Source of the DNA: Escherichia phage vB_EcoM_RZ
Strand: one strand, 5' to 3'
Sequence record: MW598459
DNA length: 64,000 nucleotides
Shown here: piece after piece, positions 35,992-45,941 of the stretch
Position numbering within the stretch: position 1 is the first letter of the stretch
Layout: each line of letters begins with the position of its first letter
Notes under the pieces: generated by a model
Told to the model about the DNA's origin: nothing
Seen by the model: the letters and a program-made list of their open reading frames with translations, nothing else
The model's database searches: none
Position numbers and translations under genes: made by a program

Positions 35992-37623
35992 ATGATTAAT
36001 AAACTCAGTCTCAAAGAACTGCCGTATAGCATCGGTATTCCAGACGAAGGCCAACAGAGAATTCGTTGGATACAAAACGGTGATTGTATGACTGCGGCCA
36101 GTACCAAATATGGTCATGATGGTAATTTGAACGCCGCCGCGGTTGGCGTTCAAACAAACGTAGATACACTCGACGACAACTCAAATACATCTAAAGAAAA
36201 AATAAACGAAATTATTGATAACGTCAATAATATTCAGGAAGCTTTGGATATAACAACTAACACGGAAGTTGTTAAACAAATTGAAAAAAACCGTACGGAT
36301 ATTCTTGACCTTGATGAACGTCAATTTAATACCGAATTACTGTCAAGCGAAACATCCGAAGGCCTTAAAACGTTAAAAGAAGATGTTGGTGCTTATGACC
36401 CGTTAACCGATTCATATTATCGCACAGTTCGTAATGACCTCGTATGGATTAAAAATGAATTAGGCCAGTATGTTGACCAAGATATAAATGGTCTCCAGGT
36501 TATCGGCAATCCGTCAAAAGGCATGAAACGCCGCATCATCGATAACAGTTCTGCTATTGTTGCTCATGGAGTTCGTATTAAGACTCTTGAGGACAATTAC
36601 CATGATTCTGATGTCGGTTCTCTTAACGTAAAAGTAATTAAAATTCGTGAAGAATTAGGTGAGTCTACTTTAGCAATAGGTAAACCGGCTGTATTTGTTA
36701 GACTGAATACTCTTGATGGTAAAGCAGTCGAAATTGACGAAGATATTACCAACATTCAAGAAGCTATTGGTTTTGGTACAGGGATTGCAATTACAACCCG
36801 CGTTGAAAATCTCGGCGGACGTGTTTCAGTCAATGAAACAGATATTGCGAATATCAAACCAAGACTCACGAAGGTTGAAACTGATATTGGAACAGCACTG
36901 GAGCCATTGACAATTAATGGTCGAATCAGTGCTTTACGCGCGGATGTCAATGGATTACAGGTTGTTGTTGGCCAGGATTCAAGTTCCGGTTTGCGTGGTA
37001 CCACTGCATGGCTTTCTCAGAGAATCGGTACAGAGCAATCTCCAGAGCCAAACACTATCACGTATAAGTTGAATGCAACCACTACGCTGGCTAACGAAAC
37101 TGCATCAGGTCTCCAGGATGTACAAGCTGAAATTGGTACAAATAACACTGGTATGAAAGGTTCTATTTTGACTTTAACTAGTCAGATGAATGGTACAAAC
37201 CCTAACGGTGCTACTGTGGCTGAACGTGGTGTTCTTCCGGTTGTAATTAACTTGGATATGCTGATGGCGTCCAAGCTGAACGATGCACCATTGGACAATA
37301 AGTTATATGGTCGCAAGCAAGGAACCTGGGCTGAAATTATCGATGCTGAAACCGAGATTGATGCAATTAAACTTGATACTGCAAAAATTGCACCATTAAC
37401 CACTCGTGTGACAACCCTTGAAGGTACAGTAACTCCGCTCCCTGGTCGCCTGGATGCGGCCGAGACGAAGATAACTACTTTAGAAGGTAAAGTATCAGCC
37501 TTAGAAACAGAGCTCGCCAAAAGGCCTCCTGTCGCTCCTGTGGCCGATGGTCTCCCGTATGTTCTAGTTGATAATGCATGGGTTCTTTTGTCAACATTCG
37601 TGACATTAAATCCAGCACCATAA
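35992..37623 (+). CDS. wac: fibritin (whisker) protein
   Basis: 543 aa coiled-coil-rich protein between 12 and 13; C-terminal foldon-like GLPYVLVDNAWVLLSTF. Confidence 0.8.
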   Translation: MINKLSLKELPYSIGIPDEGQQRIRWIQNGDCMTAASTKYGHDGNLNAAAVGVQTNVDTLDDNSNTSKEKINEIIDNVNNIQEALDITTNTEVVKQIEKNRTDILDLDERQFNTELLSSETSEGLKTLKEDVGAYDPLTDSYYRTVRNDLVWIKNELGQYVDQDINGLQVIGNPSKGMKRRIIDNSSAIVAHGVRIKTLEDNYHDSDVGSLNVKVIKIREELGESTLAIGKPAVFVRLNTLDGKAVEIDEDITNIQEAIGFGTGIAITTRVENLGGRVSVNETDIANIKPRLTKVETDIGTALEPLTINGRISALRADVNGLQVVVGQDSSSGLRGTTAWLSQRIGTEQSPEPNTITYKLNATTTLANETASGLQDVQAEIGTNNTGMKGSILTLTSQMNGTNPNGATVAERGVLPVVINLDMLMASKLNDAPLDNKLYGRKQGTWAEIIDAETEIDAIKLDTAKIAPLTTRVTTLEGTVTPLPGRLDAAETKITTLEGKVSALETELAKRPPVAPVADGLPYVLVDNAWVLLSTFVTLNPAP

Positions 37624-37626
37624 TAA

Positions 37627-37646
37627 AAGGGCTTCGGCCCTTTTTT
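37627..37646 (+). terminator. rho-independent terminator after wac
   Basis: AAGGGCTTCGGCCCTT hairpin + TTTTTT. Confidence 0.65.
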
Positions 37647-37648
37647 CG

Positions 37649-37656
37649 TATAAATA
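37649..37656 (+). promoter_or_regulatory. late promoter TATAAATA for gene 13
   Basis: Exact TATAAATA about 20 nt upstream of gp13 ATG. Confidence 0.6.
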
Positions 37657-37674
37657 CAGTAAAGAGGAAAACAT

Positions 37675-38613
37675 ATGGCAACTGAATCATACAACCCGAA
37701 ACAATTAAAAGATGCAATCCTTCGTCGTCTTGGTGCTCCAATCACGAATATCGAAGTTACGACCGAACAGGTTTATGATTGCATCCAGCGCGCATTAGAA
37801 TTATATGGCGAATATCACTATAATGGTTATAACAAAGGTTATCAGGCTTTTTATATTGGCCATGATGAAGTTTCACAGCAGAAATTCCGCGATGGCGTTT
37901 TCGATTTAAAAGGACGTAATATTTTTGCAGTAACGCAGATTATTCGTACTAATGTCGGTTCATTAACTTCGATGGATGGTCAAGCTACATATCCGTGGTT
38001 CACAGATTTCGTTCTGGGACTGGCCGGGATTAACGGTGGAATGGGTAGCTCATGTAACAGCTTTGGTCCAAATGCTTTTGGTGCAGACCTTGGTTATTTT
38101 ACACAGCTTATGCAATACCGTTCAATGATGCAAGACCTGATGGTTCCGCTGCCAGATTACTGGTATAATGACGATACTGAACAACTTAAAATTATGGGCA
38201 ACTTCCGTCAGGGAGATGTGATTGTAATTGAAGTTTACACCAAATCCTTTAATGGTGTTGATGCAATGGCCAGCAATACAGCTGGATATGGTTTTGCTTC
38301 GGCCGATTGTGATAATCCGTGGAATGCTGGTGCACAGTGGGATAACCCAGCGCGCAGAATAAGCGGTATGAGAGCCGGTGAGGACCTTGGACTTCAAGAT
38401 GGTGCATACAACAACCGTTGGGTGAAAGACTATGCCACGGCGCTCGTTAAGGAAGTTAACGGCAACGTATTGGCTAAACACCAGGGGATGATGATGCCAG
38501 GTGGTACCACGGTTGATGGTGTTCGTTTAATTGAAGAAGCTCGTATGGAAAAAGAACGGCTCCGCGAAGAACTTGACCTGCTGGATGCACCCGCTGGAAT
38601 ACTAATTGGGTGA
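37675..38613 (+). CDS. 13: neck protein gp13
   Basis: 312 aa (T4 gp13 309 aa). Confidence 0.8.
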
Positions 38614-38616
38614 TTA

Positions 38617-39252
38617 ATGGCTACTTACTATAGACTTTATGTATCAACATTTGAAACATCTAATGGGATAATGGTATATGGCGGTAAACGCCATTCACAT
38701 TATGAAGATTCTAAAGCGGATAGTTATTTCGGTTCTGGTACTATTGTCAAGCGAGCTAAACAAAAATACGGAAGGAAATGTTTAGTCGACATTACATGGT
38801 CTAAACCTTTTGAATCGCCTGCCCTATTAAAAGAAGCCGAAGCCTTACTAGTCAGTGAGCTTTTAGAAAGTTTTGATAATTGTGCAAATTTACATCCAAC
38901 AGGGGGAGGCGGACCAGAAGGTTATAGTTGTCCAGAAGATTCCCCTGCCTTTGGTAAAAAGAGAACAGCAGAATCAAGAAAACGAATGTCAGACGCAGCA
39001 AAACAAAGGGAATGGTCAGAAGAAGGATTAAAACGTCGTAAAGAATCAACAGCTCGAATGTGGATTGATTTTAAGGACAGACATCCAGATTTTTCTGATG
39101 ATAAAAATCCGGCCGCGCGTAAAATTATTACAGGCGACCTAGAATTTTGTACCGGAAGAAAATGTGCAGAATATTATTCGATAACACCGGCGACGGTCAT
39201 TTACAGATGTAAAAGTACAGCCGAAAAATGGAAATTATGGAATTATGCGTAA
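38617..39252 (+). CDS. GIY-YIG homing endonuclease (Seg-like) inserted between genes 13 and 14
   Basis: 211 aa; N-terminal GIY-YIG-like [32 protein letters not shown]3-like [18 protein letters not shown]; no gene here in T4. Confidence 0.7.
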
Positions 39253-40033
39253 TTCTTATGATGCAAGCTTATTCGCTCGGCTCGAAGATGGAACCGGGTA
39301 TGACAATACAAACTCGTCAGAGATACTCAACCAATATGTAAACTTTATGCATCATGAAAATACCCAGACTTTAGCTGATGCTATTGTTGCTGAAAGTATT
39401 CAGATGCGCGGAATGTCTCTATATTATATCCCAAGACAATTCGTTAAACCGGATTTGTTATTCGGTGAAGACCTTCAGAGTAAATTTGATAAAGCATGGA
39501 AATTTGCTGGCTATCTGGATACGTTTGACGCATATCAGGGTGATGGTTCTATCTTTAGTAAATTCGGTATGACTGTGAACGATGAAATCACAATATCGAT
39601 TAACCCTAATCTGTTTAAACATCAATGCAACGGAACCGAACCTATTGCAGGGGATTTGATTTATTTCCCTCTTGATAACAGTCTGTTCGAAATTACATGG
39701 GTGCAACCTTACGACCCATTCTATCAGGTAGGTCAAAACGCCATTCGTAAAATCACCGCGAGCAAATACATTTACTCCGGGGAAGAGCTTAAACCTGAAT
39801 TGCAACGGAATGAAGGTATTAATATTTCAGAATTCAGCGAGCTCGATTTACAACCAATCCACAATATCGATGGCCTTACAGATATCAGCGATATCCCTTA
39901 TGCTGAATCCAATGAGATTAACGCAGAAGCAGCTGAATATGTTAAACCATATTTTGTGCAGAATGGCCGTGGACTTGAGGCTCCTCCGAAGGCAAAACAG
40001 GATAGCTTTGACGATAGTTTCTTTGATGAATAA
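39245..40033 (+). CDS. 14: neck protein gp14
   Basis: 262 aa (T4 gp14 256 aa); start overlaps stop of the endonuclease ORF. Confidence 0.8.
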
Positions 40034-40076
40034 ATACATTTATTAATGCGCCCGAATTGGGCGCCTGGAGGTTACT

Positions 40077-40948
40077 TTGTTTGGGCATTTTTATAATTCG
40101 TCTCTGCGTCGCTATATCGTTTTAATGGGCGATTTATTTTCCCATGTACAAGTGGCCAGAACCAGAGAAGACACTGGACTTAAATATATTAAGGTCCCTA
40201 TTTCTTATGCTTCAAAAGAAAAATTCATGATGCAGCTTGGAAAATGGACCGCTATTCAGAATACACCGACTCCTGACATGACACCACAAGAACGTGCTGC
40301 TCAGAAGGCTAAAATCGAGACCGTATTGCCCCGTATGAACCTACATATGGTTGACTTGATGTATAACGGGCAATATAAAACGGCTCTCCAGAATCACACA
40401 CAAGCGCGATTTGCTAATAACGACCCTCGCAAGCAGATATCTCAATATTCTCCTGTGCCGGTCAAAATGATTTTCGAGCTTGGAATATATACAAGGCATC
40501 AAGATGATATGTTCCAGATTATCGAACAAATCATGCCTTACTTCCAGCCACATTTTAATACAACCATCACTGAACTTTACACGAATGAAATTACATTCGA
40601 ACGTGATATAAGAATCGTATTGCAGTCAATTGCTATGGATGAGCAAATTGAAGGTGATGCAATGACTCGTCGTAGACTCGAATGGTCCATTATGTTCGAA
40701 GTTAACGGTTGGTTATATCCACCGGTCAAGGAAGTAGCCGGGGAAATCCGTACTATCTATCTTGACTTCTTTGCAAATTCCAGAGAGCTTGCACCGGAGG
40801 GCAATTTCGAATCTGTTGACTCGGAAGCTGTTCCACGAGACGTCGACCAAGAAGACTGGCAAGGTGAATCTGTTCAAACATATTCGCAGGATATTCCTGT
40901 GCCGGTTGACCCAGCACCGCCAGCCCCAAGAAAAAATAGGGTACCACT

Positions 40949-40952: not shown

Positions 40953-43259
<2,307 letters not shown>

Positions 43260-45300: not shown

Positions 45301-45323
45301 GCGCGTATAATATAAATACGCGC
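45301..45323 (+). promoter_or_regulatory. late promoter TATAAATA embedded in a perfect hairpin, upstream of HNH gene
   Basis: GCGCGTATAATATAAATACGCGC: 8-bp arms enclose TATAAATA (45311-45318). Confidence 0.5.
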
Positions 45324-45335
45324 AAGGATTTACAA

Positions 45336-45941
45336 GTGATTATTTCTAAATTTGTTGAAGTTAAAATACGAAATCATGCAAAATGGTGGAGTGAATACTT
45401 AGGTAAAACTCTAACATACCATGATGTAATTTCTGTTCCAGTTGAACAAATGCCAGATAATAGTAATAAAAAGATTGAGTGTTCCTGTGATGAATGTGGG
45501 GTACATTTTGAGCGCGGCATTCAGCTGCTTCGTCGTGTTGATAAACATTTATGTAAAGCATGTTCAAGAAAAGATATTGGACAAAAGAATGTTATTGCGC
45601 AAGGTGGTGTACCAAGACCATGGCAACGCGGTGAAAAACATCATAGCTGGAAGGGTAATAAGCGCGAATTCTATTTGTATGCTCAACGCGTTCATGCATT
45701 GACAAGAGCAAAACATCTAAAGAATATTTGGTCAACATGGGAAAATGCAGATAAGATAGGAAAATGTGGAGAAGATGGTGCATATCAACTTGACCACAAA
45801 GTTTCTATTGCATATGGATTTTATAATCACATACCAGAGACTGTTATCGCTTCGCTCAACAATTTAGAAATAGTCACTTGGGAATCTAATAGGTCCAAAG
45901 GAAAATCAAATAGTATTGACTTATGGGATATATTATCCTGA
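45336..45941 (+). CDS. HNH homing endonuclease inserted between genes 18 and 19 (GTG start inferred)
   Basis: HNH motif YQLDHKVSIAYGF..NLEIVTWESNRSKG plus Cys clusters CSCDECG..CKAC; SD AAGGA 7 nt before GTG. Confidence 0.7.
   Translation: MIISKFVEVKIRNHAKWWSEYLGKTLTYHDVISVPVEQMPDNSNKKIECSCDECGVHFERGIQLLRRVDKHLCKACSRKDIGQKNVIAQGGVPRPWQRGEKHHSWKGNKREFYLYAQRVHALTRAKHLKNIWSTWENADKIGKCGEDGAYQLDHKVSIAYGFYNHIPETVIASLNNLEIVTWESNRSKGKSNSIDLWDILS

Follow-up and report, generated by a model that had tools for sequence, protein, structure and literature searches.

Between the neck genes 13 and 14 of Escherichia phage vB_EcoM_RZ lies an open reading frame of 211 codons plus stop with an ATG start on the plus strand, which is treated here as a free-standing homing endonuclease gene (HEG; Table 1). 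The window, a stretch of 64,000 nucleotides from this phage (MW598459), belongs to Gaprivervirus, the SP18/VR7-like T4-type phages, as judged by megablast. The TGA stop codon of gene 13 (38611-38613) is followed by the trinucleotide 'tta' and then by the ATG of the HEG at 38617, and the TAA stop codon of the HEG (39250-39252) lies beyond the ATG of gene 14 at 39245, so that 8 nt (ATGCGTAA) are common to the HEG and gene 14. A preliminary description had placed a 211-aa frame exactly between gp13 and gp14, 3 nt past the gp13 stop and overlapping gp14, which the coordinates confirm. It had also stated that T4 has no gene at this place; indeed, in T4 (NC_000866) only a single nucleotide separates the end of gene 13 (94553) from the start of gene 14 (94555).

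The identity of the flanking genes is clear, with gp13 matching the PHROG head-tail adaptor Ad2 (6e-42) and gp14 the Pfam family T4_neck-protein (1e-101), and with fibritin further upstream and gp15 further downstream. The ATG at 39245 is the earliest gene 14 start codon downstream of the in-frame stop, and a start at this position alone preserves the conserved gp14 N-terminus. That the HEG is not a chance reading frame follows from its match to PHROG 314 'homing endonuclease' (2e-29), from 43 full-length homologues detected by tblastn in phage records and from a dN/dS of 0.04 in comparison with phage VR26.

Table 1. Positions of the HEG, its predicted domains and its surroundings in the window
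Feature	Position	Strand	Basis
T4-type late promoter motif TATAAATA upstream of gene 13	37649..37656	+	motif search
Gene 13, neck protein / head-tail adaptor Ad2, upstream flank	37675..38613	+	ORF, PHROG
5' flank variant tract, nine differing positions	38593..38614		alignment
HEG, free-standing, 211 aa + stop	38617..39252	+	ORF, PHROG 314, homologues
First four HEG codons M-A-T-Y, equal to empty-site gene 14 codons (ATGGCTACaTAt)	38617..38628	+	junction comparison
GIY-YIG nuclease domain, ~aa 4-97	38626..38907	+	HHalign, family alignment, models
NUMOD3-like basic helix, aa 109-125, below Pfam cut-off	38941..38991	+	Pfam
I-TevI-type helix-turn-helix DNA-binding domain, ~aa 146-206	39052..39234	+	profile, Pfam of homologues, Foldseek
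Gene 14, neck protein / head closure Hc2	39245..40033	+	ORF, Pfam
Putative 3' co-conversion tract in gene 14, 12 fixed differences between HEG-carrying and HEG-free phages at 39262-39334	39253..39340		alignment

With respect to expression, the late promoter motif TATAAATA occurs 21 times in the window against 5.2 expected occurrences, but not between 37657 and 42752, the next match being at 42753. As the nearest motif thus lies upstream of gene 13, the HEG is most simply regarded as a promoter-less cassette within the late 13-14 transcript, presumably driven by the gene 13 late promoter; segC, segF and segG of T4 are likewise promoter-less cassettes in late transcripts (PMC2988022). The closely spaced stop/start pairs (TGAttaATG in the window, TAATG in VR26, and ATGCGTAA) suggest that translation of the HEG is coupled to that of gene 13, and translation of gene 14 to that of the HEG. 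A scan for sigma-70 promoters and terminators gave no excess over chance.

Domain architecture and relation to I-TevI and the Seg endonucleases

The preliminary description had ascribed GIY-YIG-like motifs of the Seg type to the N-terminal half of the protein, an assignment which is borne out by family comparison. Among 1.8 billion representatives, 7156 relatives of the HEG protein were retrieved by a profile search at E ≤ 0.001. A family alignment of 120 cropped N-terminal domains, compared by HHalign with residues 1-99 of the T4 td intron endonuclease I-TevI, matched over 87 columns with a probability of 95.2% (E 2.7e-8), and paired Y21/G23 with Y17/G19, E75 with the catalytic E75 and N91 with N90 of I-TevI. 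Wherever a residue is present at the position, Y21 (109/109), G23 (112/112), E75 (120/120) and N91 (119/119) are invariant, and Y8 is found in 60 of 65 family sequences.

The predicted domain consists of a beta hairpin with Y8 ('RLY') and Y21-G22-G23 ('VYGG'), a helix at 42-51, a strand at 56-61 and a helix at 68-85 bearing E75, followed by N91. The motifs R6-L7-Y8 and V20-Y21-G22(-G23) are 11 residues apart, and in both structure models, which are of moderate confidence, strands 4-14 and 17-27 pair as a hairpin; the AlphaFold model (pLDDT 75.6) displays the expected hairpin-helix-strand-helix order. With its motifs, the catalytic Glu and Asn and, at moderate confidence, the alpha/beta fold, the protein conforms to the GIY-YIG superfamily.

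On the other hand, Pfam PF01541 (GIY-YIG) was not matched at E ≤ 1 by the HEG protein or by ten more distant N-terminal relatives, NCBIfam gave no GIY-YIG match for the HEG protein even at E ≤ 1, phmmer of the protein against PDB sequences retrieved nothing and Foldseek of the model against the PDB found no GIY-YIG structure. The GIY-YIG assignment therefore rests on profile-profile and pairwise comparison. The Seg-like branch has diverged too far to be recognised by PF01541, and the 95% match to I-TevI by HHalign stands in for it. Thus, of the profile search for GIY-YIG and NUMOD domains proposed in the preliminary description, the family comparison with I-TevI turned out positive, but the Pfam and NCBIfam GIY-YIG models did not match and NUMOD3 stayed below its cut-off. 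With respect to the catalytic residues, Arg27 of I-TevI aligns to D31, position 25 is occupied by histidine or arginine in the family (68 H, 40 R) and K50 is invariant, which leaves one canonical catalytic residue unmatched in the alignment. In the HEG model, the helix alpha-1 that bears Arg27 in I-TevI is predicted to be a loop.

In the C-terminal half, the letters that the preliminary description had quoted as a NUMOD3-like DNA-binding motif are present, but the Pfam match to aa 109-125 is weak (E 0.01, 16.2 bits against a cut-off of 20.4). A profile of nine family sequences matches the I-TevI DNA-binding domain (PDB 1i3j) over aa 146-206 with E 2.5e-5, the HEG homologues score 21-26 bits on Pfam I-TevI_DNA-bd, for which the cut-off is 27, and the same I-TevI domain 1i3j is the sole Foldseek match in the PDB, weak and with a probability of 0.94. 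A zinc finger was not found in the linker, as the sequence is devoid of CxxC pairs. By these comparisons, GIY-YIG domain, basic linker and helix-turn-helix domain are arranged in a shortened I-TevI/Seg layout.

The HEG protein and I-TevI (PDB 1LN0/1MK0 for the catalytic and 1I3J/1T2T for the DNA-binding domain) thus have in common a 'beads on a string' layout with an N-terminal GIY-YIG domain, an extended linker with a NUMOD3-type helix and a C-terminal helix-turn-helix domain. In contrast to I-TevI, the HEG protein is not intron-encoded, does not possess the linker zinc finger and has a length of 211 instead of 245 aa.

T4 SegC, by annotation the nearest named relative and a GIY-YIG endonuclease experimentally shown to be mobile (PMC2988022), is 30% identical to the HEG protein over 126 aa of the GIY-YIG domain (BLASTP, E 5e-10), with the Y-x-GSG, KYG, E and N motifs in common, and both genes are free-standing and promoter-less in a late structural operon (PMC2988022). 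However, T4 segC (80196-80618) is located between 5.1 and 5.3 and the HEG between 13 and 14, SegC has 140 aa without a C-terminal I-TevI-type helix-turn-helix domain in comparison to the 211 aa of the HEG protein, and SegC is absent from the tblastn matches to the HEG protein at E ≤ 1e-5. Orthology to T4 SegC was rejected on the basis of locus, length, domain content and the 30% identity; the HEG represents a paralogous Seg-like lineage.

The element is already present in public annotation, as the SP18 record (GQ981382) describes a 99.5% identical protein as 'segC, homing endonuclease, similar to SegC of phage Phi1' and the VR26 record names a 'putative endonuclease; SegC'. The label 'segC' reflects naming by nearest match and not orthology. 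A paper describing or testing a 13/14 homing endonuclease of this lineage was not found; in the phi1/RB49 paper and the Edgell review, segC is mentioned only at the T4 locus or without a location.

Anatomy and distribution of the occupied junction

Among 31 Gaprivervirus records with at least 90% identity by megablast compared at the 13/14 junction, the HEG is present in seven (SP18 twice, VR26 twice, Yersinia phage P8, TH40 and pEC-M719-6WT.2, hereafter M719), and the remaining approximately 24 records have a clean empty site, aligning in two pieces without the ~635 bp. The comparison with related phages called for in the preliminary description thus corroborated an insertion at 13/14 with precise empty sites in most Gapriverviruses.

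Where the site is empty, as in VR7, DK-13, VR20 and TH41 among others, the stop codon of gene 13 shares bases with the start codon of gene 14 (...GGGCTAATGGCTACaTATGAC...) and gp14 begins with MATYD. The HEG of the window begins with ATGGCTACTTACTATAGA (MATYYR). As the HEG reading frame thereby starts with MATY like the empty-site gene 14, the first four codons of gene 14, initiation codon included, have been taken over. The clearest case is VR26, in which the unchanged empty-site end of gene 13 (GGGCTAATGGCTACATAT) runs directly into the HEG. At the other end, the 3' terminus of the HEG (...W N Y A stop) supplies gene 14 with a new start, read in a different frame, with the start codon and the first two codons (ATGCGTAA) within the HEG, and gp14 of the window starts with MRNSYD..., one residue longer than MATYD... 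of the HEG-free phages. The reading frame of 636 nt is consequently slightly longer than the inserted DNA, which amounts to about 631-635 bp (~631 nt in VR26). By reusing the start of gene 14 and carrying a replacement start, the HEG leaves both essential neck genes intact; as the gene 14 start lies inside the HEG, simple deletion is not tolerated. Two database records are mis-annotated at this junction from an internal ATG, as in SP18 gp14 (L001 13731..14417) is given with 228 aa and loses its conserved N-terminus over the HEG, and in VR26 the HEG (L003 2551..3132) does not start at the ATG overlapping the gene 13 stop.

The homologue in phage G5211 is labelled in its record as 'putative group I intron endonuclease', and an endonuclease encoded by an intron would agree with the similarity to I-TevI domains and with a weak similarity of aa 107-208 to the NCBIfam 'group I intron endonuclease' model TIGR01453 (E 0.0024, 17.9 bits). 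This score is, however, far under the cut-off of 56.05, both genes beside the reading frame are complete, one of them being overlapped by it, and at the empty site gene 13 directly adjoins gene 14, in contrast to an exon-exon junction inside one gene. Furthermore, Rfam at E ≤ 1 identified neither a group I intron nor another RNA family between 37000 and 41000, bar a chance match. With no intron RNA in Rfam and TIGR01453 below cut-off, the intron endonuclease label was rejected, and this origin has next to no likelihood. The chance match in question, to Spot 42 in the 14/15 intergenic region (40018..40094, plus strand), scores 20.9 bits against a gathering threshold of 80 (E 0.91) and is almost certainly fortuitous.

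The free-standing element is flanked by short tracts of sequence that go along with its presence. In an alignment of ~5.5 kb around the site from six HEG-carrying and eight HEG-free Gapriverviruses (3888 ungapped columns, 729 variable sites), all of the 12 sites that split every HEG-carrying from every HEG-free phage fall into the 3' tract, within 85 nt of the insert. Leaving VR26 aside, nine further splitting sites appear within 24 nt upstream, in the 5' tract, where the window, SP18, P8, TH40 and M719 differ from all eight HEG-free phages. These five HEG-carrying phages have a gp13 end ...APAGILIG instead of ...APTPILVG and TGAtta in place of the TAATG overlap; VR26 carries the HEG and retains the empty-site version of the 5' tract. 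The 3' tract is 100% identical among the five and 80-84% identical to HEG-free phages.

The same five phages have HEGs of 99.0-99.5% identity. In particular, the HEG of the window is 99.0% identical to that of SP18, with an upstream flank that is only 78.9% identical to SP18 and 97.7% identical to the HEG-free TH41. For the window, SP18 and VR26 alike, the closest backbone relatives are HEG-free phages, with VR20 the nearest flank relative of SP18 and UPEC01 that of VR26. This pattern is the footprint that homing into different backbones, accompanied by short co-conversion, would be expected to leave; some of the flank differences might be 'immunity' changes brought about by selection instead of co-conversion. 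Vertical inheritance with loss was rejected as the cause of the patchiness, as the HEG together with the 88-nt tract is 99-100% identical in backbones with as much as 21% difference immediately upstream.

Apart from the junction, Gapriverviruses have two allele types of the upstream flank (fibritin gene wac, 35992..37623, and approximately 36700-38590), with the window being 97-98% identical to TH41 and DK-13 and only ~79% identical to SP18, VR7, VR20 and CJ20. Presumably, the two types reflect recombinational exchange of the fibritin gene.

Between the HEGs of the window and VR26, 39.5 synonymous and 7.5 non-synonymous differences were counted (dS 0.37, dN/dS 0.041), which indicates strong purifying selection on the HEG protein. 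This selection, which extends over the whole reading frame beyond the last 8 nt, argues against a decayed or domesticated former homing endonuclease that would bind DNA without cutting or homing and be kept for regulation or for the embedded gene 14 start. Such a protein would be in line with the missing Arg27 equivalent, with the lack of a Pfam GIY-YIG match and with a gene that cannot simply be deleted due to the gene 14 start within it. It is nevertheless improbable in view of the invariance of Y21, G23, E75 and N91 throughout the 120-sequence family and of a HEG that is 99% identical in backbones 21% different upstream, which points to recent horizontal spread.

Beyond Gaprivervirus, each homologue inspected occupies the 13/14 junction and shares 8-14 nt with the beginning of gene 14. 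By tblastn, the identity with the HEG protein of the window is 60% in F2 (Tequatrovirus), the HEG of which likewise starts with 'MATY', 56% in both MX01 (Dhakavirus) and G5211 (Krischvirus), 52% in phT4A (Slopekvirus) and 49% in Prick1, a Klebsiella phage with no genus in its record and with flanks 99% identical to those of phT4A. One HEG lineage is thus found at the same 13/14 junction in five genera. As a gp14 homologue is encoded in ~1661 phage records and the HEG in about 43, the element occupies ~2-3% of the gp14-encoding records. In addition, gp13 of F2 ends with ...PPAGILVG (L008 1955..1999) and gp13 of the HEG-free T4 with ...PPFGILVG (L013 20510..20554); the 'AGIL' common to HEG-carrying alleles of two genera might reflect a flank carried between genera or a selected cleavage-resistant site.

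The divergence of the HEG is decoupled from that of its flanks, which argues for repeated invasion or allele replacement. Between phT4A (L011 1995..2609) and Prick1 (L012 1998..2612), gp13 is 99.0% and gp14 98.8% identical, but the HEG only 73.5%; by this comparison, the HEG allele has been replaced or independently acquired with the flanks undisturbed. In the case of the window and MX01, the identities are 88% for gp13, 76% for gp14 and 58% for the HEG.

A second optional gene is found in the same structural module, for which the preliminary description had mentioned an 'HNH cassette'. Probably meant was an extra ORF of 201 aa with a GTG start (45336..45941, plus strand) between the tail sheath gene 18 and the tail tube gene 19, preceded by TATAAATA at 45311-45318. 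The HNH assignment was not confirmed by Pfam, PHROGs or PDB search: the ORF belongs to PHROG 5104 'unknown function' and gave no Pfam or PDB match bar a faint treble-clef zinc finger. By eye, two CxxC pairs and an HNH-like stretch 'LDHKVSI...NLEIVTWESNRSK' are discernible. The ORF corresponds to the 'gp19.1 hypothetical protein' of VR7, is complete only in DK-13, TH57 and VR7 and partial in DCP80, and is missing from most other Gapriverviruses, including all that carry the HEG at 13/14. As no listed record unites this ORF with the 13/14 HEG, the window phage is a mosaic with respect to optional genes.

Probable intronless homing and its alternatives

Cumulatively, the reading of the element as a Seg-like GIY-YIG homing endonuclease, already put forward in the preliminary description, is supported, and we consider it likely, with a probability of roughly 0.85, that the HEG is a T4 Seg-type free-standing homing endonuclease gene in which a GIY-YIG domain, a NUMOD3-like basic linker and an I-TevI-type helix-turn-helix domain are combined for intronless homing at the 13/14 junction. 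As is characteristic of this type, the HEG is an optional gene, and its comparative footprint speaks for non-reciprocal transfer with co-conversion. SegF and SegG of T4 are likewise free-standing, located beside an essential gene, missing in close relatives and spread together with a short flank tract (PMC2988022), as is inferred for the HEG. In the case of SegF and SegG, which target genes 56 and 32 and not 13/14, cleavage sites and biased inheritance have been measured experimentally; for the HEG, homing is read from the comparative footprint.

According to this model, the late promoter of gene 13 would drive late transcription of the HEG, with its translation probably coupled to that of gene 13 and the translation of gene 14 in turn coupled to that of the HEG. 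In a mixed infection with a relative possessing the empty junction, the protein would bind conserved 13/14 junction sequence and introduce a double-strand break at or near the empty junction of phages such as VR7, DK-13 and TH41, in the vicinity of GGGCTAATGGCTACATATGAC. Repair by recombination from the HEG-carrying genome would then copy the HEG along with tens of flanking bases, i.e. intronless homing with co-conversion. The genome of the HEG-carrying phage itself would be protected, as the insert splits the target site and the flanks are altered.

An active nuclease might alternatively serve mainly in competition, cutting the genomes of co-infecting relatives, with exclusion of neck-allele markers as a consequence, or other targets. 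The Seg and Mob endonucleases of T4 cause localised marker exclusion of T2 alleles (PMC2988022), and the co-converted block at 13/14 alters residues of both gp13 and gp14. Exclusion and homing are, however, indistinguishable, as one event of cleavage and repair yields both, and with a tract of less than 90 nt carried along few flanking markers would gain. Competition as the main role is thus regarded as very unlikely, even more so than decay.

A more far-reaching interpretation, which extends the homing model and which we put forward tentatively and hold to be rather doubtful, is that the HEG belongs to a distinct, unnamed Seg-like lineage that has repeatedly invaded the 13/14 junction in at least five T4-like genera and, by capture of the gp14 start, became hard to lose. 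If this holds true, expression of gp14 would depend on a start codon, and possibly on coupling, inside the HEG, making the element 'addictive' as well as mobile.

T4-like phages are textbook carriers of free-standing GIY-YIG homing endonucleases. Given this biology and copies with 99.5% identity that are annotated as homing endonucleases, the HEG is of an already known kind; what is new is confined to the anatomy of the junction and its co-conversion and to one lineage targeting the same junction in five genera. The finding consequently matters little beyond correct annotation. Nevertheless, with start-codon capture, a regenerated start, a tract of less than 90 nt and identical elements in divergent backbones, the locus would be an unusually clean natural case of intronless homing, and the 13/14 junction may provide a defined target on which a new Seg-type specificity can be tested.
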